A stretch of DNA of 64,000 nt from Thermoanaerobaculia bacterium (GTDB lineage Bacteria > Acidobacteriota > Thermoanaerobaculia > UBA5066), in NCBI GenBank assembly GCA_963719225.1, contig CAVRAY010000001.1:512001-576000 (forward strand), read 5' to 3'. How positions within the stretch are numbered: the stretch's first letter is position 1; every line of letters starts with the position of its first letter. The position numbers and the translations under genes are program-made. Of the stretch, positions 6,398 through 50,423 are shown piece by piece. The notes under the pieces were generated by a model that was not told the origin of the DNA, did not search any database, and saw only the letters and a list, made by a program, of their open reading frames with translations.

Positions 6398-7390
6398 ATG
6401 GCAACCGCAAGGCGCCTCAGGCAGACGATTCTCAGGGAGGCGGTCCGCGAAAACGTGGACGTCATCGAAAAACGTCTGCCCAGGGGCCTGAGGCGCGCCG
6501 ACCGCTTTCGAAGGCATCTCTTCCGCACCTCCGTCTTCATCGTCGTGCCGCTCGCCCTCTTCCTCTCCATCAACGCCCTGACGACGGGACGCGGCGAACG
6601 CACGGACGTCCTCGTCGTCGCGGGACCGTCCGCGGCCCCGCGGGTCCCCGCGGCCGTCATCAACGCTCCGAACGGCCTCGAACCCTCGCTCTTCCACCTC
6701 GAGGTGCGGTCCGTCGTGATCGACCCGGGACACGGGGGGCTGGATCCCGGAGCGGCGGCCTCCGGAGTCGTGGAAAAGGACGTGACGCTCGACGTCGCGC
6801 GGCGTCTCCGAGAGCTCCTCGTCGCCCAGAAGATCGCCGTATCGCTCACGCGCGACGCGGACACGACGCTGTCGCTGCGCGACCGCGTCTCGCTCGCGAA
6901 CGCGAAAAAAGCCGATCTCTTCGTGTCGATCCACGTGAACTCGCTGCCGGCCGTGAAGGAGAAGCGCGGCGTCGAGACGTATTTTCTCGGCACGACGACC
7001 GACCCGCACGTCCAGCGGCTCGCTCTCGACGAGAACCGAACCTCGGGCTACACGATGGCGGATTTCCGGCGCCTCCTCGAGGGCGTCCTCGCGGACTCGC
7101 GGCAGGGCGAGTCGCGCAAGTTCGCCGAGTCCGTGCAAGGGGGGCTCGTGAACGCGCTCCGCCCGGTCGTGCCCCGCCTGCAGGACCGCGGCGTGCGAAG
7201 CGCGCCCTTCGCGGTCCTCATCGCGACGGAAATGCCGGGTGTGCTCGCGGAGGTGTCGACGGTCTCGAACGAGGACGAGGCGCGCCATCTCCGGGATCCC
7301 GCGTATCGTCAGCAGATCGCGAGGGCTCTCTGCAACGGGATCCTCGCCTACGCGGAGTCGCGGAACCATCCGCCCTCCAAACGGAGTTGA
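6398..7390 (+). CDS. Membrane-anchored N-acetylmuramoyl-L-alanine amidase (Amidase_3)
   Basis: IDPGHGG, EKDVTL, SIHVN and LAEV zinc/catalytic residues; basic N-terminus followed by one hydrophobic segment (SVFIVVPLALFLSI). Confidence 0.93.
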   Translation: MATARRLRQTILREAVRENVDVIEKRLPRGLRRADRFRRHLFRTSVFIVVPLALFLSINALTTGRGERTDVLVVAGPSAAPRVPAAVINAPNGLEPSLFHLEVRSVVIDPGHGGLDPGAAASGVVEKDVTLDVARRLRELLVAQKIAVSLTRDADTTLSLRDRVSLANAKKADLFVSIHVNSLPAVKEKRGVETYFLGTTTDPHVQRLALDENRTSGYTMADFRRLLEGVLADSRQGESRKFAESVQGGLVNALRPVVPRLQDRGVRSAPFAVLIATEMPGVLAEVSTVSNEDEARHLRDPAYRQQIARALCNGILAYAESRNHPPSKRS

Positions 7391-7391
7391 C

Positions 7392-8411
7392 ATGAGCGGG
7401 AAGAAGGAAGTTCTCCACGTCGGCATCGACCTCGGCACGTCGCGCAGCGCGATCACGGCGTCGAACGGCGTGCATCACGTGGTCGAGAGCTACGTGGGAT
7501 GGCCCCTGGACATGGTAGCGAGGAAAGTCGTCAAGAAGCCGATCCTCTTCGGCGCCGAGGCCCTCGAGAACCGGCCGATGCTCGACCTGCACCGCCCGCT
7601 CGAGCGCGGCCTCATCAAGCAGGGCTCGGCGAAGGACGAGGAGGCCGTGCACGAGCTCCTGAAACACCTCATCTCGCTCGCCGGGAAGAAAGACGGCCAG
7701 TCCGTCCACGCCGTCGTGGGCGTGCCGGCCGAGGCGCTCCGCGTTTCGCGTTTGCACCTGCGCGGCGCCGTCAAGGGGATCGCCGACGCCCTGCTCATCG
7801 TGTCCGAGCCGTTCGCGGTGGCCTTCGGAATGGACGCGCTGCTGCACACGATGGTCATCGACATCGGCGCGGGGACCACGGACTTCTGCGTCATGAACGG
7901 GCGCTACCCGACCGAGGACGACCAGCGCACGCTGACGCACGCGGGCGACTCCATAGACGAGCAGCTCATGGCTCTCGTGAAGACGAGGCACCCGGACGGC
8001 CGCTTCTCGATCCACATGGTCCGCGACTGGAAGGAGAAGAACAGCTTCATCGGCAACGCGCCGGGACCGGTCGTCGTCCGGTTCCCGGTGAAGGGCAAGC
8101 CGGTCGATGTGGACATCACCGCCGAGATGAAGAAGGCCTGCGAGAGCGTCGTCGGCCCGATCGCCGAGACGATGCTCGATCTGCTCGCGAAGGTCGAGCC
8201 CGAATACCAGGAGAAGGTGCAGCGCAACGTCGTCCTGGCGGGCGGCGGCTCGCAGATGCCCGGTCTCGCCGCCGCGCTCGAGAAGACTCTCGCCGAGCTC
8301 GGCGGGGGCCGCGTGCGCGCCGTGGAGGATCCCGTCTTCGCGGGATCGAACGGCGGGCTCGCCATCGCGCTGGACGCGCCGGAAGGCGACTGGGAGCCGC
8401 TCTCGGCATGA
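7392..8411 (+). CDS. MamK-like actin-family ATPase
   Basis: GIDLGTS, VVGVPA, VSEPF, IDIGAGTTD, LAGGGS, DPVFAG and C-terminal W-x-x-L follow the MamK pattern rather than MreB (IEEP, DIGGGT). ATG at 7392 after GGAG. Confidence 0.88.
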   Translation: MSGKKEVLHVGIDLGTSRSAITASNGVHHVVESYVGWPLDMVARKVVKKPILFGAEALENRPMLDLHRPLERGLIKQGSAKDEEAVHELLKHLISLAGKKDGQSVHAVVGVPAEALRVSRLHLRGAVKGIADALLIVSEPFAVAFGMDALLHTMVIDIGAGTTDFCVMNGRYPTEDDQRTLTHAGDSIDEQLMALVKTRHPDGRFSIHMVRDWKEKNSFIGNAPGPVVVRFPVKGKPVDVDITAEMKKACESVVGPIAETMLDLLAKVEPEYQEKVQRNVVLAGGGSQMPGLAAALEKTLAELGGGRVRAVEDPVFAGSNGGLAIALDAPEGDWEPLSA

Positions 8412-10162
8412 GTCCCGTCGACAGCGGCTTCCCGCGGGATTCCGGCGTGAAGAAGCGGATGCTCCCCTCGGTGACCGAGGTCGTCCGCGAGCTCGCCAAG
8501 GTCGTCTCCGCGGACCCGGCCGTGCTGTTCAAGGGCGCGCGGAGCGTGGTCGCCGAGGAGCTCGCGAAGGTGAAGCAGGGGTTCGAAGCGGCGCCGCTCG
8601 ACGTCCTCGTCAAGAGGGCGCGCCTGCAGCTCGAGCGCGACGGCGAGGCGACCCCCGTGTCCGACCCGCCCATGCCCGTCTTTCCGACACGCCCCGCGCC
8701 GTCGCGCGATGCGGCGGAAACCCCTTCGTCTCCCGCGGGCGGCGCCTCCACGAAGAGGGCGACTCCCGACGATCCCTTTCAGGACGTGGCGTCGCGGGCG
8801 GAGCTCAACTGGGAAAAGGAGATCCCGATCCAACCCGAGGACGCGCCCTTCCGCTCCGCGATCCTTCCCATTCCGCGCAAGTCGCGGGGGCCGCTCGAGA
8901 TTTCCCAGCCCATCGACGCGCCGCACAAACCCGCTTCGGAGCCGAAGGTTGAGCCAAGAGTTGAGCCGAAGGTTGAGCCGACGCCTGGGCTGAAAACCGA
9001 GCCGGCCCCTCGGAAACCGCATCCCGAGCTGGAGCTGGACTTTGCTCGCCCGTCGCCGGCGGCGCCCGAAGCTCCCAAGCCAAAACCGAGAGTCGCGCCT
9101 CCCGAGCCGCCTCCGGTTCGGCCCGAGCCGGCTCCGAAGCCGAAAGCAACGCCTGCCGAGCCCGCGCCGCTCGCGTCCGAGCCCGCAGAACCGGCGCCGA
9201 AGCCGGCCCCGGCCGAGGTTGCGCCGGAAAAGCCGATGCAGCGTCCCGCGGTGGTGTCCGCACCCGCCATCCCGCTCGTGAACCCGCGCGAGCTCGAGCT
9301 CCCCGAGGCCCTCTCCCGGCGCGCTTCGCCGCCTCCCTCGGTTCCCAAGGCTCCTTTCGAGCCGCTTCCGCAGCCCGCCGGCCCGGAGCGGTTCCTCGTG
9401 ACGCCGGCTCCGCCTCCGCGGCGCGAGCCCGCGGTGATGTCCATGTCGGAGATGCCGCCCCTCGCAGAGACTCTCGAGGACCAGATCGAGAACCACGACG
9501 ACACGCAGCCGAACATGGAGGAGTTCAATTTCAAGGCGGCTGAAAATCCCGCCCCGGCGCAGGCCCCGCCGCCCTCCCGCTCGAGCCGAAGGGGCTGGCT
9601 CGTTGCGATCCTGGGCGTCCTCGTGATCGCCGCGGGCCTGACGTGGGCCGTGCGCGAGGGCGTTTTCAAGAGCGACGTCGTCAGGAACCCAGCGCTCGTC
9701 ACGCAACAAATCCCCGACCTGGCGCCGCCCGAAAGCGTGGCGCCCGCACAGGCACCCACGGCTCCGCCACCCGTCCTCGGAAAACCCGCGGGGCCGCCAT
9801 CGAAATCCGCTCCCGCTCCGGCGAAACAGTCTGCCGCCGGTCCCCCCTCGGGCGCCGCGATCCCGAAGGGCCGGGCTGCGGTGCTGCTGACGCCCGACTG
9901 GGCGGGGAAGCCTGTCGTCTACGTCATTCACTTCTCGTCGACGAAGGATCGCGAGAGCGCGGCGAAGGAGGCGCAGAAGCTCGGCGCCGCTCTCGGCGCT
10001 CCCGCACGCGCCGTCGAAGTGGATCTCGGCGAAAAGGGGACCTGGTACCGCGTCGTGATCGGCGAGTTCAAAGACGTCGACGCCGCGCGCGCGTTCCGCG
10101 CGGAGCTCGAGGCGAAGAAGACGCCGGGCATGGGCTTCGTCTACGAGATGCGGGGGCGCTGA
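8408..10162 (+). CDS. Pro-rich bitopic membrane protein with C-terminal SPOR domain
   Basis: ATGA overlap with the actin stop; small helical N-domain, long Pro/Glu/Ala-rich region, TM (WLVAILGVLVIAAGLTWAV), SPOR-like YVIHFSS...GTWYRVVIGEF..A.AF. Confidence 0.85.
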   Translation: MSPVDSGFPRDSGVKKRMLPSVTEVVRELAKVVSADPAVLFKGARSVVAEELAKVKQGFEAAPLDVLVKRARLQLERDGEATPVSDPPMPVFPTRPAPSRDAAETPSSPAGGASTKRATPDDPFQDVASRAELNWEKEIPIQPEDAPFRSAILPIPRKSRGPLEISQPIDAPHKPASEPKVEPRVEPKVEPTPGLKTEPAPRKPHPELELDFARPSPAAPEAPKPKPRVAPPEPPPVRPEPAPKPKATPAEPAPLASEPAEPAPKPAPAEVAPEKPMQRPAVVSAPAIPLVNPRELELPEALSRRASPPPSVPKAPFEPLPQPAGPERFLVTPAPPPRREPAVMSMSEMPPLAETLEDQIENHDDTQPNMEEFNFKAAENPAPAQAPPPSRSSRRGWLVAILGVLVIAAGLTWAVREGVFKSDVVRNPALVTQQIPDLAPPESVAPAQAPTAPPPVLGKPAGPPSKSAPAPAKQSAAGPPSGAAIPKGRAAVLLTPDWAGKPVVYVIHFSSTKDRESAAKEAQKLGAALGAPARAVEVDLGEKGTWYRVVIGEFKDVDAARAFRAELEAKKTPGMGFVYEMRGR

Positions 10163-10199: not shown

Positions 10200-11680
10200 T
10201 GTCAAAGCTCCTTAGAAGTGTCCCCTCGTAGAGCTCGTTAGAAATGTCCCCTTTTGGTCGTCGTAGTCGTCGCGCGGTGGAAATGTGGAAAACGGGAGGC
10301 CGGCCTCATCGGAGGCCGGCGCGCTCCTTGCGCTCCCATGAAGCCTGGACGCTTGCGGCGGTTAATGGTGTTCTCCAGGGGTGAACATCAGAGGGCGCTT
10401 TGAAAGGGCGGCGTGTTGCCACGGAGGCCGGCTTGATCAGTGGCGCCGGCCGAGGCGGCCGGTTTTTGATTTCGTGAAACTCGAGGGCTCGATGGTAGTG
10501 AAGCAGCACCCGACTGCCATCAAGCCTGTGGCGAACCACGATCTTCTCGCGGCGGCGCGGCATCTGAGACTTGGGCCCGGTAATCTGGAACCAGCGGCCG
10601 TCCCAGGCGACCGTCCAGTCGTTCTGCACGGTGCGCTGCTCTTCGAAGACGAAAACATCCTCGAGCCGTAGGCGCTTGGGCACGGGTCGGTGGTAGTCGA
10701 CTCGGCTAGCCGAGCTGTGCGCGAATCTCTGATTGATCGTCTCGAGGAATCCTCCTCTCAGAAGGGCGTTGGCCGCCTGGAGGTCCTTGATGCCATGCAG
10801 CCTGAACTCCTTGACGAGCCGGTCCTGAAGCACGCCGTGCCGCCGCTCGATCCTGCCCTTGGCCTGAGGGCTGGCTGCGGGAATGATCTGAATCGAGAGC
10901 TTGTGGCAGGCCTTGCCGAAGGCCGTCAGTGCAGGCCGGCCTAAGAGCTGCTCGTCTTTCGTCGGCTCGCGATCAGCCACGTAGAGATTCTTGTGGTCGG
11001 TGTAAAGCGCCTTGGGGATCCCGTAAAGCTCGATCCACCGCCACAGCACCCTCATCGCTCCTTCGGTGGTCTCCTGCTCGAAGAATTCGCCTCCCATCTT
11101 CGCCGTGGCGTCGTCGACGAGGTCGATCAGGCATGGCTTGTGGCCCGTCTCGAGCCAGTCGTGGAAGCTTCCGTCCATCTGAACGAGCTCGCCGAAGTGC
11201 TCCTTCGGCGGCCTCCACCTGCGGTGCGGCCCTCGTTTCCTTTTCTTCTTCCACAGCCCCTCTACCATCAGCCACCGCCGCAACGTCTCGTGAGAAACCC
11301 TCAGCCCCACCTCGAGAAGCTTCTCGGCCGCCAGTGTCGGCCCAAAACCTTCCAGCCGCGTCCGGCAGAGCTCGAGACTCTGCTGCTTGCTCTCAGGGTC
11401 CAACTTCCGATTCGACGGCCGTCCTCGCGAGCGATGCACCAGTCCCTTGGCGCCCTCGGCGCGGTATCTCTTCCAGATCCTCTTGCCCTGCCGCCCGCTC
11501 ATCTGAAGCCGCTCGGCAGCCGCCACGACCGTCTGACGCCCGGCCTTCACCTGCTCGAGCTCCACCAGCCGCGCTCTCTCCTTCGTGCTCAGCCCCACGA
11601 TCTCCTCCATCGCGCCCCCTTCTTTACGAGGGGACACTTCTATCGAGTTATCGAGGGGACACTTTCATGGAGCTACGACA
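10200..11680 (-). mobile_element. Complete IS1202-family (formerly ISNCY) insertion sequence, 1481 bp, 17-bp target duplication
   Basis: Ends read TGTCAAAGCTCC and TGTCGTAGCTCC (revcomp), each with two subterminal AA(G/A)TGTCCCCT boxes. Direct repeat GTACGTCGCTGCGTCGG at 10183-10199 and 11681-11697. Confidence 0.93.
10306..11610 (-). CDS. DDE transposase, IS1202/ISNCY family
   Basis: N-terminal HTH (GLVHRSRGRPSN), GELVQMDGS, VDDAT, YTD, SPQAKGRIER. ATG at 11610 after GAAGGGGG. Confidence 0.93.
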   Translation of the reverse strand: MEEIVGLSTKERARLVELEQVKAGRQTVVAAAERLQMSGRQGKRIWKRYRAEGAKGLVHRSRGRPSNRKLDPESKQQSLELCRTRLEGFGPTLAAEKLLEVGLRVSHETLRRWLMVEGLWKKKRKRGPHRRWRPPKEHFGELVQMDGSFHDWLETGHKPCLIDLVDDATAKMGGEFFEQETTEGAMRVLWRWIELYGIPKALYTDHKNLYVADREPTKDEQLLGRPALTAFGKACHKLSIQIIPAASPQAKGRIERRHGVLQDRLVKEFRLHGIKDLQAANALLRGGFLETINQRFAHSSASRVDYHRPVPKRLRLEDVFVFEEQRTVQNDWTVAWDGRWFQITGPKSQMPRRREKIVVRHRLDGSRVLLHYHRALEFHEIKNRPPRPAPLIKPASVATRRPFKAPSDVHPWRTPLTAASVQASWERKERAGLR

Positions 11681-11697
11681 GTACGTCGCTGCGTCGG

Positions 11698-11726
11698 TTG
11701 ACATCTGATGTGTGATGCGTGATGCT
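11698..11726 (+). promoter_or_regulatory. Putative sigma70 promoter/operator of vapBC
   Basis: TTGACA-N17-GATGCT ending 6 nt before the antitoxin ATG; three TGATG repeats and the CATC-T-GATG palindrome overlap it. Confidence 0.55.
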
Positions 11727-11732
11727 ATCCCG

Positions 11733-11960
11733 ATGAGGACGACACTCGAGATCGACGACGATGTCTTGCAGGCGGCGAAGGAGATCGCGGCCAATCGCTC
11801 GACTACGGCCGGTCGAGTCCTTTCGGCCCTCGCGCGAAAGGCGCTCGAGCCGGGAAGGCAACCGCAGGTACGCAACGGGGTACCCCTGATTCCGCGCCGG
11901 CCGAAAGGGAGCGTCCGCCCGACGATGGCTCTCGTCAATCGGCTCCGGGACGAGGCGTGA
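11733..11960 (+). CDS. vapB: VapB-type (RHH) antitoxin
   Basis: MRTTLEIDDDVLQAAKEIA...RNGVPL; overlaps the PIN gene start. Confidence 0.88.
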   Translation: MRTTLEIDDDVLQAAKEIAANRSTTAGRVLSALARKALEPGRQPQVRNGVPLIPRRPKGSVRPTMALVNRLRDEA

Positions 11961-12400
11961 GGCGAGTCGCCCTCCTCGACGTCAACGTCCTCGTCGCGCT
12001 GTTCGATCCGGATCACGTGCACCACGAAGCCGCCCATCAATGGTTTCGCGGCATTCGCCAGGATGGCTGGGCCACCTGCCCGATCACAGAAAACGGGCTC
12101 GTGCGGATTCTCTCGAATCCCGCCTACATGGCCCGCCCCGAGACGCGCGGAGCGATCGTCCGACGCCTCGTCGACTTCTGCGCGAGCGGTGAGCACGTCT
12201 TCTGGTCCGACGAGATCTCGTTTCGAGACCACGGTCTCTTTAAGTGGTCCGCGCCCGTGTCCCACCAGGCGCTCACGGACGTTTACCTGTTGGGTCTTGC
12301 GAGGAGCAGGTCGGGGAAGCTCGCGACGTTCGACCGAAGTATTCCCGTTGCGGCCTTCGTCGGAGCCGACCGAGGAACACTCGAGGTGATCCCGGCCTGA
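11957..12400 (+). CDS. vapC: VapC PIN-domain ribonuclease toxin
   Basis: LLDVNVL, TCPITE, TDVYLL and LATFD acidic tetrad. Confidence 0.92.
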   Translation: MRRVALLDVNVLVALFDPDHVHHEAAHQWFRGIRQDGWATCPITENGLVRILSNPAYMARPETRGAIVRRLVDFCASGEHVFWSDEISFRDHGLFKWSAPVSHQALTDVYLLGLARSRSGKLATFDRSIPVAAFVGADRGTLEVIPA

Positions 12401-13255: not shown

Positions 13256-14134
13256 TCAGAATGACGGCTGGAAAGTCTTGATGACGTCGGCGACGGTCGG
13301 CGCCGGCTTGCCGGCGAGCGCGTTCACCTTGACGGCCGCGAGGCGGTCGAGGAGGGTGGGCTCCGAAACTTCGTAGAGCAGCCCCGTCGTCATGAACTCC
13401 TTCTCCCGCGTGTAGGCGAGCGCCGCCGCGCGCGACGAGGGGTCGTGATCCGCGGGGAGCGGCTTCTGCTTGGCCTTGAGCGTCTTGAACAGGTCGTCGC
13501 CGCGCCACGTGACGCAGGGAGACATGATGTTCAGGAACGCGAATCCCTTGTGAGAAAGAGCCTTCACCATGAGCTCGACGGTGCCCTTCAGGTCGCCCGA
13601 GAAGGTGCGCCCGACCCACGTGGCTCCGAACGAGATCGCGAGCTCGCAGGGGTCGACCGAAGGCTCGGGGTTTCCGTAGTGCGTGGACTTCGTCTTGTCT
13701 CCCGCGGGGGTCGTGGGCGCGGCCTGGCCCTTCGTGAGGCCGTAGATCTCGTTGTCCATGAGGAGGTACGTGACGTCCAGATTGCGCCTCGCGGCGTGCA
13801 TGAAGTGGTTGCCGCCGATGGCGATCCCGTCGCCGTCGCCGCCCACGGCGATGACCTTGAGGTCCGGGCGCGCGACCTTGACGCCCGCCGCGAGCGGAAG
13901 AGCGCGGCCGTGAAGGCTGTTCACGCCGAACGTGGCCACGTAGCCGGGGAGGCGCGACGAGCAGCCGATTCCCGAGACGACGACCGTCTCCCAGGGCTTG
14001 ACCTGCAATTCGGTGAGCGCGCGATAGAGGCCGGTCAGGACGCCGAAGTCGCCGCAACCGGCGCACCAGACGGGTTTCAGCTCGGTCTTGTAGTCGGCGG
14101 GCTTGAACTCGGGGAGCGTCGCGGTTTCGCTCAT
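13256..14134 (-). CDS. korB: 2-oxoacid:ferredoxin oxidoreductase beta subunit
   Basis: WCAGCG, SGIGCS, LHGRALP, GDGD...DNEIYGLTKGQ TPP motif. Confidence 0.95.
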   Translation of the reverse strand: MSETATLPEFKPADYKTELKPVWCAGCGDFGVLTGLYRALTELQVKPWETVVVSGIGCSSRLPGYVATFGVNSLHGRALPLAAGVKVARPDLKVIAVGGDGDGIAIGGNHFMHAARRNLDVTYLLMDNEIYGLTKGQAAPTTPAGDKTKSTHYGNPEPSVDPCELAISFGATWVGRTFSGDLKGTVELMVKALSHKGFAFLNIMSPCVTWRGDDLFKTLKAKQKPLPADHDPSSRAAALAYTREKEFMTTGLLYEVSEPTLLDRLAAVKVNALAGKPAPTVADVIKTFQPSF

Positions 14135-16027: not shown

Positions 16028-16807
16028 TCAGGCTGAAATCAGCCGCGCCAGCGAATACGCCGCTCCCGAGGCGAGGGCGCCGACGAGGACGGTGCGCAAC
16101 CCTTCCTGAACGGGCGGCCGGCCCGTCAGCCGACCCTTCACCCCCCCGAAGACGGCGAGCGCAGCCAGCGTGACCCCCACGGACACCGCGAGCGCGGACG
16201 TCACGGGGATAGCGAGGAGGTACGGGGCGAGCGGGATCGCCCCCCCGGCGACGTAGGAGCCGCCGATGGTGAACGCCGAGATGCGCGCGCGCTTCGGATC
16301 GGGCTCCACGAGGTTCAGCTCCTCGCGCATCATGAAATCCACCCAGCGCGTGTGATCCGCGCAGACGGCGTGGGTAGCCTTCTCCAGCGTGTCGCCCTCG
16401 AGGCCCCATCCCCGAAAGACCTTGCGGACCTCCTCCTGCTCCTCGCTCGGAACCTCGGCGACCTCCTCGCGCTCGCGTTTCCGCTCGCTGGCCCAGGTGT
16501 CGGCCTCGCTCCGGGCGGCGAGGTAGCCGCCGAGACCCATCGCGATGGCGCCCGCGGCCAGCTCCGCGACGCCCGCGATGAGAATGACGCGCGCGTTCGC
16601 GACGGCGCCGGAGAGGCCGGCGGCGAGCGCGAACGGAACCGTGAGGCCGTCGGACATTCCGAGGACGACGTCGCGTACCGTCTCGGACCCGGAGAAGTGG
16701 GCCTCGACGTGGTGGTGGCGGGGCCGTGGACGGGACGTGCCCTTCACGTGCGGCGGCGAAGCTGCCGTGTGCGGCCGCGGCTTCTCCTTCGACTTTTGGG
16801 CAGTCAC
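16028..16807 (-). CDS. VIT1/CCC1 family Fe/Mn transporter
   Basis: VRDVVLGMSDGL, AMGLGGYLA, MMREEL. GTG start overlaps the SDR stop. Confidence 0.92.
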   Translation of the reverse strand: MTAQKSKEKPRPHTAASPPHVKGTSRPRPRHHHVEAHFSGSETVRDVVLGMSDGLTVPFALAAGLSGAVANARVILIAGVAELAAGAIAMGLGGYLAARSEADTWASERKREREEVAEVPSEEQEEVRKVFRGWGLEGDTLEKATHAVCADHTRWVDFMMREELNLVEPDPKRARISAFTIGGSYVAGGAIPLAPYLLAIPVTSALAVSVGVTLAALAVFGGVKGRLTGRPPVQEGLRTVLVGALASGAAYSLARLISA

Positions 16808-36564: not shown

Positions 36565-37050
36565 ATGACGAGACGCCGGGGATTCACGCTCATCGAGCTC
36601 CTGATCGTCGTGGCGATCATCGGAATCATCGTCGCGATTGCCGTCGTGAACATGATCAACGCAATTCAGCGCGCGAAGCAGAAGCGCTCGATGGCGGACA
36701 TGAGGAGCCTCGCGACGGCAATCGAGGCGTACGCGACCGATCAGAATTACTATCCGGCCGCGGCCGGTTACACGTTGCCTTCAGGGCTCTCGCTCCCCAC
36801 CGGGACGCTCGGGCCGGTGCCGGACTCGCTCAGCCCGACGTACCTGAGGGTGGTGCCGCTCGTCGACGGGTGGAGCTCCTACTACACGTATGGGACCAGC
36901 ACCTCCCAGACCGACTTCGTGGTGCGCTCGGCCGGTGCCGACGGAGCCCTCGATTCCTCCCCGATTTGGGGCCTGACGACCAACTTCAACGCCGACATCA
37001 TCCTCGTCGACGGGACCTTCGTGCAGTACCCGGAGGGTGCTCAGAAATGA
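36565..37050 (+). CDS. Type IV pilin / GspG-like protein 1
   Basis: RRRG|FTLIELLIVVAIIGI class III signal; PLVDGW and SAGADG motifs. Confidence 0.92.
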   Translation: MTRRRGFTLIELLIVVAIIGIIVAIAVVNMINAIQRAKQKRSMADMRSLATAIEAYATDQNYYPAAAGYTLPSGLSLPTGTLGPVPDSLSPTYLRVVPLVDGWSSYYTYGTSTSQTDFVVRSAGADGALDSSPIWGLTTNFNADIILVDGTFVQYPEGAQK

Positions 37051-37179
37051 CTCGGTGCGGAGCCGGCCCGACAAACGGTGTCCCGGTCTGCCCGCCTCCT
37101 CCGACAAAATTTCGTCGCCGCGCCGGTGTTCAGGCCCTATTCCTGCCCGAACCAGCCGGATTCCGGCTCCCCGGATCGC

Positions 37180-37193
37180 GGCACGCGTCTTGA
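37180..37193 (+). promoter_or_regulatory. Putative sigma54 -24/-12 promoter of pilin 2
   Basis: GGCACG-CGTC-TTGA upstream of AGGAGG and ATG 37225. Confidence 0.6.
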
Positions 37194-37224
37194 AAGCACA
37201 TCGGCACATTAGGAGGTTCATCTT

Positions 37225-37731
37225 ATGAAGAAGAGGAACAACAAGGGATTCACCCTCATCGAGCTCTTGATCGTCGTGGCCATCATCGGCATCATCGTCG
37301 CCATCGCCATTCCGAACCTGCTCAACGCCATTCAGCGCGCCAAGCAGAAGAGGACGATGGGCGACATGCGGACGGCCGGCACGGCGGCCGAAGCGTACGC
37401 CGTCGATTTCAATCACTACCCGGCAGCCGCCGGCTACACGCTGCCGTCGGCTCTCACGTGGCCTTTCTCAGCCACCTTCGGCGCGCCGGGCTGCGCGGCC
37501 CCCTGCCTCAACGGCCAGGTGACCCCGACGTACGTCCGCCTCCTGCCGCTCACGGACGGCTGGAATTCGTACTTCCTCTATGCAAGCGGCACCCAGAACT
37601 ACGGGCTCGCGTCGAACGGGAAGGATGGCCTGCAGGAAACCCCCCCCTGGACCGAAACGACCAACTTCAACAACGACATCATCTTCGTCGACGGCCAATT
37701 CACCAATTACCCAGCGGGCGCGCAGAACTGA
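37225..37731 (+). CDS. Type IV pilin / GspG-like protein 2 (probable major pilin)
   Basis: KG|FTLIELLIVVAIIGIIVAIAIP; strong RBS, own promoter motif and terminator; paralog of pilin 1. Confidence 0.92.
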   Translation: MKKRNNKGFTLIELLIVVAIIGIIVAIAIPNLLNAIQRAKQKRTMGDMRTAGTAAEAYAVDFNHYPAAAGYTLPSALTWPFSATFGAPGCAAPCLNGQVTPTYVRLLPLTDGWNSYFLYASGTQNYGLASNGKDGLQETPPWTETTNFNNDIIFVDGQFTNYPAGAQN

Positions 37732-37757
37732 TCGTCCTCCTTCTGCAGCCCGAACCC

Positions 37758-37789
37758 AAGAGCCCCCTCGTCGGGGGCTCTTTTCTTTT
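37758..37789 (+). terminator. Rho-independent terminator after pilin 2
   Basis: AAGAGCCCCC-TCGTC-GGGGGCTCTT followed by TTCTTTT. Confidence 0.9.
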
Positions 37790-37803
37790 CCGGGCCTAGA
37801 ATC

Positions 37804-40101
37804 GTGGAGGTGCAAGGCCGCGGGACGATGGGACGGACGGCGCTCCTGGGCGGCGCCCTGGGACTGGCGTTCGCAAGCCTCCTTCTCGTCCGCTGCATCC
37901 TCACGGGGGGTGTACCGGCTCGAGGCGATCTTGCCGACTTCTTCTGGCCGATGAAGGCATACACCGCCGCGCGATGGCCTTCGGGAGTGCCGCTCTGGAA
38001 TCCCCTTTCGGGCTGCGGTGAGCCCTGGCTCGCGCAGCTTCAAACGGGAGTCTTCAACCCCGGAGACCTGCCGTTTCTGCTTCCGGGTGCCGCTGGCCCT
38101 CTTCTCGGAATCGCGCTCCACCTCGCGATCGCCGCGGCCGGAATGGCGGCCTGGCTATCGGCGCTCGGCACATCGCGCGCGGGCGCTCTCCTCGGGGCCG
38201 GTGTCTTTGCGGGAGGAGGCGCTTTTCTCTCCCTGGGGCTCGTGTACAACAACTTCGAAACGGCCGCCTTCCTGCCCTGGCTGTTCCTGTCGGCGCGGCA
38301 CGCGGCACGCGGCGGCTCGCCCGCAGGGCTCGCCGTCTCCCTCGCCCTCGCGTTTCTGGGCGGCGAGCCGGCCCTGGCCGCCGCCGGCGCGATGGCCGCG
38401 ACGTTCGTCGCGTTCGCAACGCAGCGCGACGAGCCGGGCCCGCCCCCGCGCGGCCTTCGGGGAGGCTCGCGCCTTCTGGGAGGGCTCGTTCTCGGCGCGG
38501 GCCTCACGGCCGCCGCCGCGATTCCGTTCCTGGAATACGCCGTGTCGTCCGGCCGGATCGCGGGCGTGACGAAGAAAGAAGCTCTCGCGCGACCGGTCGG
38601 CGCCTCGGACCTCGTCGACCTCGTCCTTCCGCCCACCGACGCCCTCCTCTTTCGACCGTCGGAAGGCCGTGGGGGATACCTCACGACCCTCGCCCTCTCG
38701 CCGCTCGTCCTCCTTCTCGCGGCGGGGTCGGGCGCAGGGTTCGCGGCCCGTCCCCGCCTCCTCGGCGCGCTGACGATCCTCGGTCTCGCGGGCTTCCTCC
38801 TCGCGCTCGGGGCGCGCGGCGGAATCCTCCCTTTGCTTTGGGACGTGGGGCTCGCGAAGGGCCTTCGGTTCCCCGCGCGCTGGTTCGTCCTGACGCACCT
38901 CGCGCTCTCGGGCCTCGCGGGGGCGGGCCTCGACGGTTGGCTGCACGGACGGGTCTTCGGATGGCCAAAAGGTCGTGCCCCCGAGGAGGGCGCAGACGCG
39001 TCGCCGTCCGCCGTCTCGCGCCTCGCCCCCGTCCTGGTCTTCGGCGCGGCGGCTGCTGCGCTCCTCGGCGCCGGAGCGGTCTCCGGACGTCTGACGGGTC
39101 TTTCCGCCTGGGCGGCGCTCGTCGGAGCGGGAGCCGGCGCTTCTGTTCTGGCGTCCGCGCGCGCCACCGGTCGCCCCGGCGCTTCCCTCGCGGGGCCGTT
39201 CCTCGTGGCGATCGTGACGTTGCCTCTCGTTCCGGCATCGGCGGGACTCTTCGCGCCGACGCCCCTGACGCGACCTCCTTCCGCCGTCGCGGATCTGGGC
39301 CGAACACCGGGCCGCGTGTTCCCGGTGGTCTCGGACGCACCCTTGCTCGCGGCATTGGCGCGTGAAGCCGGCGGAGAATGGGGCGGCGCGTCGGGTGTGC
39401 GCGCGCGTGCCGCTCTCTCCGGCTACACGAACCTCCCGCTCGGGATTTCCTCGGCCGCCTCACCGTCCCCGATCGGAAATCCCCGCTTGACGCGCTTCCT
39501 CGGAGCGGCGCTTTCGGGAGGAGACGTGGAGACCATCCTCGCCCTTGCGGACGTACGGCACGTGGTGTCTCCGTTCCCGACGACCATCCCCGGCCTTCGG
39601 CTCGAACGGCACGAAGCGGGGATCCGCATTTACGCTCTCTCGCGTTCGTTCGGTCGCGTGTTTTTCGCACGCGCGGCCCTTGAAGCGGACGACGATGCGG
39701 CTTTTCGCACGCTTGCCACGCCTCTCTTCGACGCGGAGGCGGTCGTCCTTCTCGCGCCGCCCTCGGGGCCCCTTCCCGCTCCCCGCGCGGGCCGGACGTT
39801 CTCGGTCGCGCGGGTCGTCACGGACGTGCCCGAGGCCCTGGCGGTGGACACGGAGGCCTCCGAGACGGGTTATCTCGTCGTCACGCGCTCGCACGGACCT
39901 GGATGGAAAGCACGCGTGGACGGAACGGAAGTCCCGCTCCGGCGGGCGGATCTCGCTTTCTCGGCCGTGCTCGTGCCCGCGGGTGCGCATCGCATCGAGC
40001 TCTCCTACCGCCCGACCTCGTTCCGAGTCGGCGCGGCTGTCTCCGTGACGTCGCTCGTCATCCTCGCCGGCCTTCTCCTCGCGGGCCAGAGGCCCTCGTG
40101 A
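37804..40101 (+). CDS. YfhO-family polytopic membrane protein (GT-C-like glycosyltransferase)
   Basis: GD...FWP, PLWNP..GCG.P, LRFPARW and C-terminal PGWKA.VDG...VPAG.H.IEL.Y.P; may start at ATG 37828. Confidence 0.8.
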   Translation: MEVQGRGTMGRTALLGGALGLAFASLLLVRCILTGGVPARGDLADFFWPMKAYTAARWPSGVPLWNPLSGCGEPWLAQLQTGVFNPGDLPFLLPGAAGPLLGIALHLAIAAAGMAAWLSALGTSRAGALLGAGVFAGGGAFLSLGLVYNNFETAAFLPWLFLSARHAARGGSPAGLAVSLALAFLGGEPALAAAGAMAATFVAFATQRDEPGPPPRGLRGGSRLLGGLVLGAGLTAAAAIPFLEYAVSSGRIAGVTKKEALARPVGASDLVDLVLPPTDALLFRPSEGRGGYLTTLALSPLVLLLAAGSGAGFAARPRLLGALTILGLAGFLLALGARGGILPLLWDVGLAKGLRFPARWFVLTHLALSGLAGAGLDGWLHGRVFGWPKGRAPEEGADASPSAVSRLAPVLVFGAAAAALLGAGAVSGRLTGLSAWAALVGAGAGASVLASARATGRPGASLAGPFLVAIVTLPLVPASAGLFAPTPLTRPPSAVADLGRTPGRVFPVVSDAPLLAALAREAGGEWGGASGVRARAALSGYTNLPLGISSAASPSPIGNPRLTRFLGAALSGGDVETILALADVRHVVSPFPTTIPGLRLERHEAGIRIYALSRSFGRVFFARAALEADDDAAFRTLATPLFDAEAVVLLAPPSGPLPAPRAGRTFSVARVVTDVPEALAVDTEASETGYLVVTRSHGPGWKARVDGTEVPLRRADLAFSAVLVPAGAHRIELSYRPTSFRVGAAVSVTSLVILAGLLLAGQRPS

Positions 40102-41276
40102 ACGCGGCCGATGGCGTCCTTCTGTGCTTCTTCTTCGCGACGGGGGCCGTCGTAGGATCGTTCGCGAACGTCTGCATCCACCGCCTGCCGCGAGGAGCCT
40201 CGGTCGTCCACCCGGGCTCGCACTGTCCGGCCTGTGGCGCCGCCATCGCTTTCTACGACAACGTCCCGCTCGTGTCCTGGCTCGTGCTCCGCGGCCGATG
40301 CCGCGGGTGCGGAGCTCCCATTCGCGTCCGCTACCCGGCCGTCGAGCTGCTCGTCGCGCTCCTTTTCCTCGCCGCGGGTCTCCTCTACGGACCCACGCTC
40401 GTCGCAGCCTCCGCGGCGATTCTCTCGGCAGCGTGCGTGATCCTCGCGGCCACCGATCTCGAGGCGCGCACGCTGCCCGACGAAGTGACGTTCTCGACGC
40501 TCGGGTGCGGGCTGCTTCTTGCGGCGCTTCGCGACCACGCGGCTCGAAGCCCGGATCGTCCTTCCGCCTTCCGCTTCGCGGAGAGCCATTTCTTCGAGGC
40601 GCTGCTGGGAGCGTTCCTGGGAGCGGTTTTTCTGGAAGGTGTGAGGCGCGCCTACGCGAGACTGCGCGGCCAGGAAGGGATGGGCGGCGGCGACGTGAAG
40701 ATGCTCGCGATGGCGGGAGCGTTCACCGGGCCCGCAGGCGTCTTTTTCACGCTCCTTTTCGCGTCTCTCGCGGGCACGGCGCTGGCGGGCGGCGCGGCGG
40801 CCGTACGAGCGCTCAACTGGTCTCTCGAAGCGCGGCGCGCGCGGCGCTCATCCTCCTCGGCCCGTGCGGTTGCCGCGCGAGCCGGACTTCTGGTCGGCGA
40901 GAACGGCCTCGTCCTCGCGGCCTCCGCCCGCTTTCGGGAGATTCCCGGAGCGGCGGCGGAGGGAACCCGGCTCACGGCGGATTTCCCCACGGCCGGGCGC
41001 CTTCTCGCGTTCGTGCGGCTGGCGCGGACGCGGGCGCGGCGCGGGGCGCGAACGGCGCACGGACGCATTGCGCTGGACGACGGGGCGGCTTTTTTCCGGG
41101 TCCTCGCGGCACGCGCCGAGCCGACGCCGGCAGGACTACTCGTCCTCCTCGCCCGTGCCGACGTGCCGTTCGGCGTGTTTCTCGCGTGCGGGGCGCTCGC
41201 GGCTTTCGTGGCCGGTCGCGCGCTCTGGGAAGTGGTGGCCGGAGCCCTGCCGTGGATCCCGAGGCTCCTGCCGTGA
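40098..41276 (+). CDS. pilD: Prepilin peptidase/N-methyltransferase (A24A) with ~119-aa insertion
   Basis: GSFANVCIHRLP, CPAC and CRGC, TD.E...LPD, GMGGGDVK, VPFG; GTGA overlaps on both sides. Confidence 0.92.
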   Translation: MNAADGVLLCFFFATGAVVGSFANVCIHRLPRGASVVHPGSHCPACGAAIAFYDNVPLVSWLVLRGRCRGCGAPIRVRYPAVELLVALLFLAAGLLYGPTLVAASAAILSAACVILAATDLEARTLPDEVTFSTLGCGLLLAALRDHAARSPDRPSAFRFAESHFFEALLGAFLGAVFLEGVRRAYARLRGQEGMGGGDVKMLAMAGAFTGPAGVFFTLLFASLAGTALAGGAAAVRALNWSLEARRARRSSSSARAVAARAGLLVGENGLVLAASARFREIPGAAAEGTRLTADFPTAGRLLAFVRLARTRARRGARTAHGRIALDDGAAFFRVLAARAEPTPAGLLVLLARADVPFGVFLACGALAAFVAGRALWEVVAGALPWIPRLLP

Positions 41277-43051
41277 CGGATCGCACGTTCGAGCGCGAGG
41301 TCCGCAACGTGATCGTCGGCGGTCTCGCGACGGTGCTTTTTCTCGCCGGGACCGCGGTCGTCGTCCTCCGGAACACCGTGGCATGGGGAGTGAGCGAAAA
41401 CCTGCGCCGCCTGACGGGGGAGACCGACGTCCTCGCGAACCGAATCGGCTCGGCACCCGACCCCGAGACGGCGCTCGTGTCTGATCCCCTCGTGGCACGC
41501 CTTCTCCGCGACGCGAACGCGCGCAGCGCCGCGATTTACGACGCGCAGGGTCGGCGCGTCGCCGATGCGCCCTTCCTCCCGGACGCGGGACTCGCGCCCG
41601 TGGCGGTGACACCGGCGGGAGGGCTGCCTTCTCTCCAGCCTCTCGTCGACGCGGCCGGCGGCGCTTCCCCCTCCATCACCGTTGCCCTTCCCGACGCGAC
41701 CCGAATGCTGCGGATCGTCTGGGACGGCACGTCGATCGCCGAAGCGCGCCGGAACGCCCGCATCCTCTCGATCGCGGTGCCCGCGGCCGCATTCGTCCTC
41801 GTCCTCCTCGTCGTGCCGTTCCTGAGGCGTCTCCTCGAACCGATCGACGCGCTCACTCAGGCCGCTCGGGGGGCCGGCGGGCTCGTCCCGGCCGTGCGTG
41901 CCGGCGGCGACGAAGCCGAGACGGCGATCGCGACGTTCCAACGGACGGTCGAGGAGCTGAAAAAACGCACCGCCGAGCTGGAAGGGCTCCGCAGCTCCGA
42001 AAAGCGGCGCGCCGACATCCTCGCGGTCACGGCCGACACTCTCGTGAGGTCGCATCCCGGCGGGCTCCTCGTCGTGGACGCCGCAGGCCGCCTGACGCAG
42101 GCGAACGTTCCGGCCCGCGAGCTCCTCGGTCTCTCCGAGGAGAGTCTCGGCTCCGCGGCCGCGGAAGCCGCGCTCGACGCGGTGCCCGCGATCCGAGAGG
42201 CGGCGCAGAGCGCTCGGGCCGGCACGCCGACGCTGTCGAAGGAGCTCGCGTTCGGAGAGGGAACCGACGCCCGCCTCGTCGAGCTCACGGCGGTCCCGAT
42301 CCTGGATTCCTCGAAGGCGGTCCTGGGCGTGCTCCTCTTCCTCGAGGACCGGACGACGACGAGGCGCCTCGAGCGCGAGCTGTCGTCCCGCCGCGAGCTG
42401 GCGGCGCTCGGCGAGATGTCGGCGGGAATCGCGCACGAGTTCCGGAACGCGACGGGAACGATCCTCGGGTGGGCGCGTCTCGCCGCGAAGACGGAGGATG
42501 CCGCTTCCCGGGCCCGCCAGCTCGAGGCGATCCAGGCGGAGGCCGAGCACGTCGCGCGCGTGACGGGCGATTTTCTCTTCTTCGGCCGGCCCGAGCGGCT
42601 CGAGGCGGGGCCGTGCGACCTGCGCGCCCTCGCGCTCGAGATCGCCGACGAGCAGCGTGCGCTGACGCCAGGCGTCGTGGTCGAGGTGATCGGAACGTTT
42701 TCCCCGGCGTTCGCCGACGCCGCTCTCGTTCGCCGCGCGCTCGTGAACCTCGTGAAGAACGCGTGCGAGGCCGCGGCGGCGGGCCCGCGCGCGGGGCGCG
42801 TGGCGCTGCGCGGCGAAGGCGAAGCGGCCGGGTTCGTCAGGATCGCCGTCGAGGACGACGGCTCAGGCGTGCCCGACGAGGCGGCGGCAAAGCTCTTCGT
42901 TCCGTTCTTCTCGACGAAGGACACGGGGACGGGGCTCGGCCTCGCCATGGTCGCGAAGATCGTCGCGCTCCACGCCGGCACGATCTCGGTGGGGCGCTCG
43001 TCGGGCCTCTCGGGGGCGCGGTTCGCGCTCGAGTTCCCCGCCGTGCCCTGA
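41273..43051 (+). CDS. Sensor histidine kinase with PAS domain (PilS/NtrB-like)
   Basis: Two TM segments, HAMP-like linker, PAS (GLLVVDAAGR..AN), AHEFRN H-box, NLVKNA, DDGSG, PFFSTK..GTGLGL. Confidence 0.92.
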   Translation: MTDRTFEREVRNVIVGGLATVLFLAGTAVVVLRNTVAWGVSENLRRLTGETDVLANRIGSAPDPETALVSDPLVARLLRDANARSAAIYDAQGRRVADAPFLPDAGLAPVAVTPAGGLPSLQPLVDAAGGASPSITVALPDATRMLRIVWDGTSIAEARRNARILSIAVPAAAFVLVLLVVPFLRRLLEPIDALTQAARGAGGLVPAVRAGGDEAETAIATFQRTVEELKKRTAELEGLRSSEKRRADILAVTADTLVRSHPGGLLVVDAAGRLTQANVPARELLGLSEESLGSAAAEAALDAVPAIREAAQSARAGTPTLSKELAFGEGTDARLVELTAVPILDSSKAVLGVLLFLEDRTTTRRLERELSSRRELAALGEMSAGIAHEFRNATGTILGWARLAAKTEDAASRARQLEAIQAEAEHVARVTGDFLFFGRPERLEAGPCDLRALALEIADEQRALTPGVVVEVIGTFSPAFADAALVRRALVNLVKNACEAAAAGPRAGRVALRGEGEAAGFVRIAVEDDGSGVPDEAAAKLFVPFFSTKDTGTGLGLAMVAKIVALHAGTISVGRSSGLSGARFALEFPAVP

Positions 43052-43062
43052 ACGCGCCCGAC

Positions 43063-44202
43063 TCAGCCGGCGGCGGCGGAAGCGGCGGGCCGCGCGGCCG
43101 CCGTCTTCCTCTTCTCCACGAGGGCCTTGAACGCTTCCTTGTCGAGCGCCTTCTCGAGCGCGTCGTCCGGGTCCACCGTCGCCGCCACGACGAGGTCGGC
43201 GAGATACTGGTCCATCCCGATCATCCCGGCGTTGCGGCCCGTCTGGATGAGCGTCGTGATCATGTTCGTCTTTCCCTCGCGGATGCTGTTCGAGAGCGCG
43301 GAGGATCCGCGGAGCACCTCGAAAGCGGGAGCGCGGCCGCCCCCCTTCTTCTTCAGGAGAACCTGGGCGACGACGGCTTTCAGCACCTCGGCGAGGACGG
43401 TACGAGTCTGCTCCTGCTCCTCGGCAGGGAAGCTGTCGATGAGGCGGTCCACGGCCTTCGACGCCGAGTTCGTGTGGAGCGTCCCGAAGACGAGGAGTCC
43501 CGTCTCGGCCGCCTGAAGAGCCATCGACATCGTCTCGAGGTCGCGGAGCTCGCCGACGAGAACGACGTCCGGGTCTTCCCGGAGCGCCGCCTTCAGCGCG
43601 CCGGCGAACGTCGGCGTGTCGAAACCGAGCTCGCGGTGCGAGATCAGCGACTTCTGCGGCACGTGGAGGAACTCGACGGGATCCTCGATCGTCACGATGT
43701 GCGAAGCGCGGGTCCGGTTGATCCAGTCGAGAAGGGCCGCGAGGGTCGTGGACTTTCCCGAGCCCGTCGGGCCGGTCACGAGGACGAGGCCCCGCGGGAC
43801 GCGGGCGACGTTCGAGACGATCGGGGGCAGCCCCAGCTCCTCGATCCCGAGGACCTTCGGCGGGATCATGCGCAGGACCGCCCCCGATCCGTGCTCCTGG
43901 CGAAAGAGATTGACGCGGAAGCGCGCGATCTTGCCCATCGCGTAGGCGAAGTCGGCATCGCCCGTCTCCTGCCAGTCCTTGAAAGGCTTCTCGGGAGCGA
44001 TCGGCGCGATGAGGCTCTCGTATTCTTCCTCGGTCAGCGTGCGCCACTTGAGCCTCTGGAGATCCCCGTCCACGCGGACGATCGGCGGCGATCCCACGGC
44101 GAGATGGAGATCCGAGGCTTTCTTGTCGACGACGATCCTGAGGAGCGTGTCGATCCGGTTGATCCCCATGTCCGAGGGGGCGGGCGCGGCCGGCTTCGTC
44201 AT
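43063..44202 (-). CDS. pilT: PilT-family pilus retraction ATPase
   Basis: ASDLHL, RFRVN, GPTGSGKST, EDPVE, DPDVVLVGELRD, TLHT, ALSNSIRE. Confidence 0.93.
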   Translation of the reverse strand: MTKPAAPAPSDMGINRIDTLLRIVVDKKASDLHLAVGSPPIVRVDGDLQRLKWRTLTEEEYESLIAPIAPEKPFKDWQETGDADFAYAMGKIARFRVNLFRQEHGSGAVLRMIPPKVLGIEELGLPPIVSNVARVPRGLVLVTGPTGSGKSTTLAALLDWINRTRASHIVTIEDPVEFLHVPQKSLISHRELGFDTPTFAGALKAALREDPDVVLVGELRDLETMSMALQAAETGLLVFGTLHTNSASKAVDRLIDSFPAEEQEQTRTVLAEVLKAVVAQVLLKKKGGGRAPAFEVLRGSSALSNSIREGKTNMITTLIQTGRNAGMIGMDQYLADLVVAATVDPDDALEKALDKEAFKALVEKRKTAAARPAASAAAG

Positions 44203-46724: not shown

Positions 46725-47034
46725 CAGCCCCTCTCCATGGTCCGCTATCGTAGCTCGCGCGCAGCGGGCTGCGCCCGCGCCCGGAGAAGGGGCGCGCGAG
46801 CATCTGCCATTTCGCAGGGAAACCCCGCCCGGGTTTCCCTGCACCTTTCCTCGCGCCGGAGACACGTTTGATTACCCGCCGTTCGGTGTCGGTGCTCGCC
46901 GGGAATCGTCCGCCACCGGTCAGCGTGTGTTACGAAATGTGTCGATTCGATCGACGCATTCGCTCTGGACCTGAGGGGGGACTACGGGTATAAGATCCCT
47001 GCCACGAGTCGTTTGGCTGTCAGAATCGGATTGC

Positions 47035-47048
47035 GGCACGGACCTCGC
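47035..47048 (+). promoter_or_regulatory. Putative sigma54 promoter of the minor-pilin operon
   Basis: GGCACG-GACC-TCGC (GG-N10-GC). Confidence 0.45.
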
Positions 47049-47067
47049 TTTGGAAAGGCGGATCTCC

Positions 47068-47845: not shown

Positions 47846-48392
47846 GCGCGGCGCCCGGCGCGCGCGCCGGACCGGCGCATCCTCCCGTCGTGGCAGCAGC
47901 TTCGTCGAAGTGCTTCTCGCCATGACCATCATGGCCCTCGTGCTCGTGGGCATCCTCCAGATGTTCTCGGTTTCGCTTCTGATCAACAAGGGTGCCGCGG
48001 CGCGCACGCAGATGCTCTTCAAGTGCCAGCAGGTCGTCGAGAACATCCGCTGGTATTACTACGTGACGTCGCACAGCCTCGCGACGCCGCTCACGACGGG
48101 CATCCCTGCGCTGGGCGCGACCACGGTGAACCTGCCGTACGACGGGACAGAGGCCGAATACCCTTACTGGGGTCCGACCGGAGCGAACGTGATCGAGAGG
48201 CCCAACGGCCCGTACAAGATCAGCTACACGATCGTCAACGACGCGGCGCAGACGCTGAACAGCGGCGTCAACGTCTGGGTGATCACGGTTTCCGCGGTGC
48301 CGACGGACGTCGCCGGCGCCACGCGCTACCTGGGAATCGGCACGAACGGCGGCGGCAAGAGAGTGGACTATGTGGCGCAATTCACGCAGTAA
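47838..48392 (+). CDS. PilV-like minor pilin
   Basis: RRG|SSFVEVLLAMTIMALVLVGI; second position in the fimU-V-W-X-Y1 order. Confidence 0.82.
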   Translation: MAERGARRARRTGASSRRGSSFVEVLLAMTIMALVLVGILQMFSVSLLINKGAAARTQMLFKCQQVVENIRWYYYVTSHSLATPLTTGIPALGATTVNLPYDGTEAEYPYWGPTGANVIERPNGPYKISYTIVNDAAQTLNSGVNVWVITVSAVPTDVAGATRYLGIGTNGGGKRVDYVAQFTQ

Positions 48393-50411: not shown

Positions 50412-50423
50412 TCGGATGACATC

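Follow-up and report, generated by a model that had tools for sequence, protein, structure and literature searches.

The operon discussed here lies in a stretch of 64,000 nucleotides (the window: positions 512,001 to 576,000 of contig CAVRAY010000001.1, assembly GCA_963719225.1) of a Thermoanaerobaculia bacterium of the phylum Acidobacteriota, whose genome is 97.2% complete, 6.2% contaminated and assembled in 2 contigs. Its three genes, all on the forward strand, encode a membrane-anchored N-acetylmuramoyl-L-alanine amidase of the Amidase_3 family (6398..7390, 330 aa), a MamK-family actin-like ATPase of what we term the amidase-linked subfamily (7392..8411, 339 aa) and a bitopic membrane protein with a SPOR domain (8408..10162, 584 aa); the amidase stop codon lies 1 base ahead of the actin ATG, and the actin stop overlaps the start of the third gene (ATGA). 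An earlier reading of the window from its letters (hereafter the sequence-only reading) had singled out the middle gene as a MamK-clade actin in a stretch without magnetosome genes, and had seen in its surroundings a hint of a cell-wall-linked role. Our analysis supports this link to the wall far beyond the hint, the amidase being found directly upstream of the actin at every locus of its subfamily with sequence context, and the actin apparently represents an undescribed, widespread subfamily of the MamK family tied to wall hydrolysis.

The actin gene is a single intact open reading frame from ATG to TGA. All the MamK-like motifs named in the sequence-only reading are found in its translation, namely SYVGWPLD, VGVPA, IDIGAGTTD, PTEDDQRTLTHAG, GKPVDVDITAEMKKACE, PEYQEKVQRNVVLAGGGS, W334 and VSEPF-AVAF-GMD, the last with four spacer residues as against two in the pattern given there. 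Among relatives of solved structure, MamK ranks first (E 3e-75), followed by BeeR (3e-43) and MreB (3e-11), and the alignment with MamK runs without gaps over 333 residues (5-337). The AlphaFold model (predicted local distance difference test, pLDDT, 93) superimposes on the MamK filament subunit 5LJV with a template modelling score of 0.93 and a root-mean-square deviation (rmsd) of 1.3 Å. The nucleotide-site residues D13, G15, T16, E139, D157, G159, G161, T162, K214, E215 and G284 are invariant in 50/50 rows of the subfamily alignment. The loop formed by MamK residues 80-85, which makes the cross-strand contact (bioRxiv 2023.11.07.565980), has its equivalent at 7617..7634 (forward strand), as judged by the spacing of its anchors, which is 23 residues in the actin and in the 4/4 core MamK shown, as compared with 18 in three BeeR and two MreB proteins, which lack the loop. 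In the broad sense of the family, i.e., MamK-like fold, nucleotide site and cross-strand loop, the protein is a MamK relative. Its score with the NCBIfam MamK hidden Markov model (HMM) NF040964 is 375.6 bits, below the cut-off of 400, which is passed by 0/201 genomes of the class; this cut-off is not diagnostic for magnetosome MamK, as amidase-linked members in other phyla pass it with 421-435 bits. The cut-offs of the BeeR model NF053558 (211 bits against 530) and of the MreB HMM (55-69 bits) are not reached either. The product of 7392-8411 is a real, intact MamK-family actin, and it is neither magnetosome MamK nor BeeR.

Compared with MamK (PDB 5LJV, 5LJW, 5JYG), which it resembles in fold, nucleotide site, length of the cross-strand loop and gap-free alignment, the actin (35-40% identical to core MamK and 41-46% to the Man1-type MamK) occurs without magnetosome genes, belongs to a separate clade, is partnered by a wall amidase, and its filament is a prediction. 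BeeR of Verrucomicrobiota (PDB 8R2N; PMC11929497) is likewise described as a MamK relative in non-magnetic bacteria, yet its identity to the actin is 30-34%, it has an N-terminal extension of 30-50 aa which the actin does not share, it lacks the MamK loop which the actin retains, and it forms a clade of its own. The MamK mutant A278D does not polymerise, and the actin has a Glu (E274) at the corresponding site; this was considered as an objection and dropped, since 6/14 core MamK have Glu there too. The closest named homologues of the actin are from Thermoanaerobaculia, and it is conserved at 86-97% identity in 24/24 genomes of the genus; a plasmid search with it returned MreB-like matches only. 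Six expression runs share 5-8% of words, with contigs from relatives that are mostly less than 95% alike, so that transcription could not be inferred from them and they were not used.

The amidase (Pfam PF01520 at aa 106-316, 170 bits) consists of an N-terminal tail, one transmembrane helix, a linker and the catalytic domain, in which H112, E126, H179 and E285 are invariant in 65/65 homologues. With its zinc ligands, catalytic Glu, latching Glu and interaction helix it is an amidase of the autoinhibited AmiA/AmiB/AmiC type. The AmiA-type regulatory insert (7004..7099, forward strand) comprises a blocking helix with E212 and an interaction helix with L226, L227, V230 and L231. E212 occupies the position of AmiA Glu167, by which the blocking helix latches onto the zinc (roles of the regulatory residues according to PMC10268282). 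Both E212 and N213 are invariant among the homologues, and the equivalent of the EnvC-binding helix retains its hydrophobic face. The amidase profile aligns in one piece with AmiB, AmiA (8c2o) and AmiC, but in two pieces with amidases devoid of the regulatory insert, and the model of the protein is nearest to autoinhibited AmiA (rmsd 2.2, versus 6.2 for EnvC-activated AmiB). Blocking helix, zinc-latching Glu and interaction helix are thus shared with the Escherichia coli AmiA/AmiB/AmiC-EnvC system (PDB 8C2O, 8C0J, 4BIN; PMC10268282), from which the amidase differs by a putatively retained membrane anchor and cytoplasmic helix, by the missing AMIN domain, by the fixed link to an actin gene and, relative to AmiA, by Asn at the position of Asp135.

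The part of the amidase that matters most for its possible relation to the actin is a conserved N-terminal helix (aa 2-23; 6398..6466, forward strand; pLDDT 82-90), the candidate actin-docking element. Its core reads R/K-x-x-hydrophobic-L-x-x-hydrophobic-hydrophobic-x-E/D-N-hydrophobic, with N19 invariant in 65/65 homologues and E/D at position 18 in 64/65; the helix is conserved across phyla, whereas the surrounding linker is not. A basic stretch precedes the transmembrane helix, which is predicted from hydropathy at aa 46-64 (6533..6589, forward strand), and a transmembrane window (hydropathy at least 1.6) occurs in 62/65 homologues 18-34 aa past the invariant Asn, the median net charge between the two being +5. 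This layout suggests that the N-terminus is a cytoplasmic tail. Tat export as a family trait was rejected, a twin-arginine-like motif being present in only 11/65 homologues, and a lipobox was found in 0/65.

The third protein (Pfam SPOR, 38.9 bits; topology from hydropathy) has a small, conserved cytoplasmic helical domain (aa 18-83), a long Pro/Glu-rich linker, a transmembrane helix (approximately aa 397-415) and a periplasmic SPOR domain (aa 505-570). Its homologue follows the actin in 33/51 loci of the class, examined with 1.5 kb flanks. The N-terminal domain has no match in Pfam and no paralogue within the genome, and a suspected likeness to the N-terminus of SelA was not confirmed. The linker contains short tandem repeats (approximately 8930-9250) and is highly variable in length among relatives. 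In the Nitrospirota loci L175-L191 the third gene encodes a receiver-SPOR protein (SPOR in 9/9 tested, receiver in 7/9), which suggests an input by phosphorylation, and in other Thermoanaerobaculia a PilZ-transmembrane protein is encoded instead, either up- or downstream. A bitopic wall-binding protein is the third gene product in two phyla.

The gene order is conserved. The amidase gene lies immediately upstream of the actin gene in 51/51 loci of the class (49 genomes), in 5/5 Acidobacteriota matches outside the class, in 28/79 named GTDB loci and in 18/29 Nitrospirota loci passing the MamK cut-off. The actin was found in 132/201 genomes of the class and in 25/301 genomes of the phylum. When the tailed amidase subfamily is counted at E <= 1e-74 (the E values of ordinary amidases fall between 1e-35 and 1e-69), 131 of the 201 class genomes have both genes, 69 have neither and one, a 400-contig assembly, has the actin alone, related genomes in this count not being independent. 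Three of the 201 are marked as unpublished (G193, positive, as well as G025 and G196, both negative), and none of the conclusions rests on these three. No activator gene is present in the operon, and the wider neighbourhoods of 20 loci contain no conserved cargo gene and no conserved pilus or secretion gene. No natural amidase-actin fusion occurs among 11 longer matches; two long representatives look like frameshift run-ons into the third gene.

The 79 named GTDB loci were fetched with a mixed MamK alignment and derive from the best 80 of 464 matches, ranked by a core MamK. The 28 amidase-linked ones make up the whole named membership of one clade (FastTree support 0.999, 167 rows), which in quick IQ-TREE searches receives a Shimodaira-Hasegawa-like approximate likelihood ratio test support of 100 on 91, 53 and 55 rows and of 90 on 33 rows. 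Their hosts belong to Acidobacteriota, including Aminicenantes, Desulfobulbaceae, Nitrospirota, Gammaproteobacteria, Rokubacteria and Rhodothermales, and the subfamily spans at least six phyla. Magnetosome MamK forms a core clade (support 98-99) and a separate Man1-type clade (support 100), and the deep branches hold non-magnetosome relatives from Planctomycetes, Omnitrophota and archaea. The placement of the gene in a MamK clade is supported as to the MamK family and refined by the trees, the actin falling into a well-supported subfamily of its own outside both magnetosome clades. The further suggestion that magnetosome MamK was co-opted from this cell-wall form is not supported. Neither of the two groups branches from within the other, and approximately unbiased tests of three groupings (a single clade of all magnetosome MamK, the amidase-linked actins joined with core MamK, and the helix-partnered actins as a whole) reject nothing, the p values obtained being 0.165, 0.246 and 0.493, so that the trees favour no direction of co-option. 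Two sets of proteins in the family deserve mention in their own right, namely P0204, a 768-aa protein that joins a full FtsZ domain with a core MamK domain and is either genuine or the artefact of a read-through, and a clade with low-complexity N-terminal extensions of 190-900 aa (P0135, P0139, P0142-P0151, P0154, P0168), one member of which is from candidate division KSB1.

No mam genes accompany the actin. In the window, in which the sequence-only reading had likewise seen no mam-like genes, the gene-by-gene BLAST matches nothing other than the actin itself, and the HMM search of the whole genome for core mam genes gave scores typical of generic paralogues and no mam cluster (MamM 89.6 against a cut-off of 350, MamB 89.5 against 350, MamA 68 against 200). 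The MamI model, which does score a real MamI, matched nothing in the genome; the MamQ model is uninformative, as a real Nitrospirota cluster scores below LemA with it. Since the mam HMMs are biased to Proteobacteria, the genome was also searched by BLAST with the genes of 9 mamK loci and 4 Nitrospirota clusters, and outside the window these matched only scattered DegP, LemA, one CDF and TPR paralogues. No magnetosome cluster (mamABIMQ etc.) stands alongside the actin, and the idea of a MamK-like gene in a non-magnetotactic host is borne out. Separate morphogenetic genes are present elsewhere in the genome: at C1:68-71 kb a canonical mreB with mreC- and mreD-like genes behind it (named from translations), an ftsZ beside an ftsA-like gene, and three other Amidase_3 genes. 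The genome encodes seven LytM proteins, two of which have no catalytic motifs (C1:3102263-3103267 and C1:998961-999950, one of them EnvC-like with a coiled coil); by sequence, these two are candidate activators of the amidase.

A possible function of the amidase tail emerged from the genes that precede MamK-family actins elsewhere. The ends of Planctomycete genes upstream of such actins resemble the tail motif, and with a scoring matrix trained on the amidase tails alone (threshold at least 5) 19/23 upstream genes of the non-amidase, non-core loci pass, as compared with 27/302 other genes. In profile comparisons the amidase tail matches Man1 at 66% and the Planctomycete partners at 49% (actin control, 0.5%), and when it is set against 36 neighbour families, the three that rank top after the amidases themselves (72.6, 52.5 and 20.4%; the next, 5.6%) are all located directly upstream of MamK-family actins. 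New loci gave the same picture. Among 301 Nitrospirota genomes 28 pass the MamK cut-off, with 29 loci, 18 amidase-linked and 11 not; 10 of the 11 were widened. Eight proved to be full mam clusters, and in 8/8 the helix ends the product of a gene one or two places ahead of mamK (position -1 or -2; 135-186 aa, scores 7-16; shuffle p 0.005-0.035 in the five tested). As the published gene order is man1-mamK-man2-mad10-man3-mamP (PMC8353452, PMC9376291), this gene is man1, by position and not by a reference sequence. The remaining two widened loci are the two MamK copies of genome G784, one of which is preceded by a CheW-helix fusion. In Omnitrophota (3/301 genomes), 3/3 matches are preceded by a gene whose product carries the helix (scores 6-15, p 0.003-0.075), and one host, nS315_bin20, is a genome described as magnetotactic (bioRxiv 2020.04.27.061960). 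Altogether, the chain-end helix beside the actin gene is found in Planctomycetota, Nitrospirota, Omnitrophota, Deltaproteobacteria and one archaeon. Nine positions of the actin, among them F205, M209, P232 and V233, are common to the helix-partnered groups and are not found in core MamK; they may form a docking patch or merely reflect common ancestry.

Several of these loci are of interest by themselves. The Planctomycetota loci L094-L132 represent a separate non-magnetosome MamK-family clade, the coiled-coil partners of which, some of them with a GGDEF-like domain, end in the helix, and L091 contains this helix in three tandem copies. In Ca. Methanoperedens, an archaeal MamK-family actin (L129:472-2118) scores 404.6 bits, which passes the NCBIfam MamK cut-off, and the protein encoded next to it downstream has an archaellum FlaD/E domain and the helix at its end (score 19.5, shuffle p 0.003); relatives of the actin are present in ANME-2 archaea. 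In G784, a MamK-family gene is preceded at L199:8533-10443 by a gene for a fusion of CheW with a Man1-like C-terminus, and the surrounding 17 kb are free of mam genes; such a fusion might tie chemoreceptor arrays to the filament.

Considering the above, we regard it as probable that the tail helix of the amidase docks on the actin filament and that the filament thereby positions wall cleavage. The proposed sequence of events is as follows. By analogy with MamK, the actin should polymerise into an ATP-driven two-stranded filament under the inner membrane, and the cytoplasmic helix of the amidase would dock on it, as may be inferred from the recurrence of this helix on unrelated neighbours of MamK-family actins. 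The filament would set where the activator-dependent amidase cuts the wall, with an EnvC-like factor, possibly one of the two degenerate LytM proteins, relieving the autoinhibition. SPOR domains bind the peptide-stripped glycan left by amidases, and the SPOR protein could for that reason serve as a wall-side anchor or provide feedback. The likely outcome is an accessory local remodelling of the wall (a detail of shape, pole or separation) rather than core elongation or division, since mreBCD, ftsA-ftsZ and ordinary amidases are encoded separately and a third of the class has no such pair. Several observations weigh against this interpretation. At core MamK loci only 5/27 upstream genes reach the score of 5 (27/312 among others), so core magnetite MamK works without the helix; MamJ has no helix motif (the score of 10.6 of the MamJ at L056 was discarded as a chance match, three further MamJ-like proteins failing to align in that region); and the other MamK copy of G784 has no helix-bearing neighbour. 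The helix is short and amphipathic, and 274/4359 proteins of the genome itself, a background of 6%, reach the same score. The profile-profile probabilities are moderate (49-73%), with related neighbours not independent, the partners at L122 and L111 are weak (shuffle p 0.15 and 0.22), and the third gene is missing from many families.

The autoinhibited amidase and the SPOR protein might instead mainly anchor the filament to the wall, leaving the filament to position some other cargo. The invariance of the zinc-latching E212, the operon without an activator gene, and the Man1 and Planctomycete partners, which carry the helix without a hydrolase and so would fit a general tether, are in line with such an anchor; we nevertheless find it unlikely, given that conservation across phyla extends to all four catalytic residues and to the hydrophobic side of the activator-binding helix, and that no cargo gene is conserved around the 20 wider loci. 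To a similar degree improbable is that the two proteins share a pathway while the tail binds itself, the third protein of the operon or a membrane complex, the likeness to Man1 being a convergence of basic amphipathic helices. The motif background of 6% would suit this, as would the fact that the helices of Man1 and the Planctomycete partners come after coiled coils and that of the amidase does not; against it, the recurrence is positional, at the chain end beside the actin gene and at the top of 36 families, and the tail stays constant where the third gene varies. Poorer still are the prospects of the pair making local openings in the wall through which a machine such as a pilus or secretion system could span the envelope, and having no part in cell shape: PilZ-transmembrane or receiver-SPOR neighbours in some families do suggest a signalling input, and type IV pilus genes lie 26-45 kb off in the window, but neither the 20 wider loci nor the named ones have pilus or secretion genes as conserved neighbours. 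Finally, the view of the gene as a genuine mamK left over from a magnetosome cluster, or as an outlier of one, deserves hardly any credence in spite of its 38-46% identity to magnetosome MamK, the subfamily members passing the NCBIfam cut-off and the silent magnetosome clusters that reportedly exist in non-magnetic bacteria, as the assembled part of the genome refutes it by having no mam cluster, the clade is separate from both magnetosome groups, and the actin is well kept throughout the genus.

As for precedents of filament-guided cleavage by the amidase, the best functional one, by analogy, is the bactofilin-LmdC pair (PMC10945521), in which the N-terminal 38 residues of LmdC are reported to bind the bactofilin filament. 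The two modules have in common adjacent, conserved cytoskeletal and bitopic hydrolase genes, a short conserved cytoplasmic N-terminal tail and a wide distribution across phyla. Their parts are not homologous: BacA-LmdC combines a nucleotide-free bactofilin with an M23 endopeptidase and a beta-hairpin tail whose binding was shown, whereas the operon combines an actin ATPase with an autoinhibited Amidase_3 enzyme and a helical tail whose binding is predicted. Man1, recognised here by gene order (PMC8353452, PMC9376291, PMC11344931), resembles the amidase in its location directly before a MamK-family actin and in its similar helix, and differs from it in being a small coiled-coil protein with no enzyme domain and with the helix at the C-terminus. 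In Man1 a coiled coil has been noted and a role in chain organisation suggested (PMC11344931), and a role in crystal shape has been suggested too (PMC9840458); its helix would make Man1 a candidate for the filament adaptor that deep-branching magnetic bacteria have so far seemed to lack. A full-text literature search found nothing joining MamK with N-acetylmuramoyl-L-alanine amidase and nothing joining Man1, MamK, magnetosome and adaptor, most subscription papers and all supplements being outside its coverage.

The remainder of the window is mentioned briefly. Directly after the operon, 10306-12400 contains a transposase-like gene on the minus strand, with helix-turn-helix domains, as well as a toxin-antitoxin-like pair of the PIN-domain type. 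This segment looks like a recent insertion, since in the relative G019 the operon is followed by a 293-aa gene matching the oxidoreductase subunit encoded here at 13256-14134. A VIT1-family transporter (16028-16657) and a type IV pilus/type II secretion system-like cluster (36565-55826) are not conserved neighbours of the operon.

The amidase-linked actin occurs in two thirds of the class, which is common in soil and sediment, and its operon would represent a type of cytoskeleton-tethered wall hydrolase that offers a testable bridge to the assembly of magnetosome chains. One practical consequence is that mamK is unsafe as a marker of magnetotaxis, because among the 28 Nitrospirota genomes above the NCBIfam MamK cut-off the gene is of the amidase-linked form in 18; three of those tested, and also one Desulfobulbus genome, have no match at the level of MamB (best 60-125 bits, versus 224 for a true cluster). 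The helix also bears, through a test with a single peptide, on the question raised in PMC10653835 of what replaces MamJ outside magnetospirilla. Somewhat short of an even chance, in our estimation, is the broader proposition that the actins of the MamK family serve generally as tracks for positioning, to which varied cargoes attach by one short docking helix, and equally tentative is the list of such cargoes: the wall amidase in at least six phyla, Man1 as the equivalent of MamJ, the GGDEF-like and coiled-coil proteins of Planctomycetota, the CheW fusion and the FlaD/E protein of Methanoperedens. If this is true, the operon would contain the first actin that directly steers an amidase, and magnetosome chains would be one use of an older modular system.
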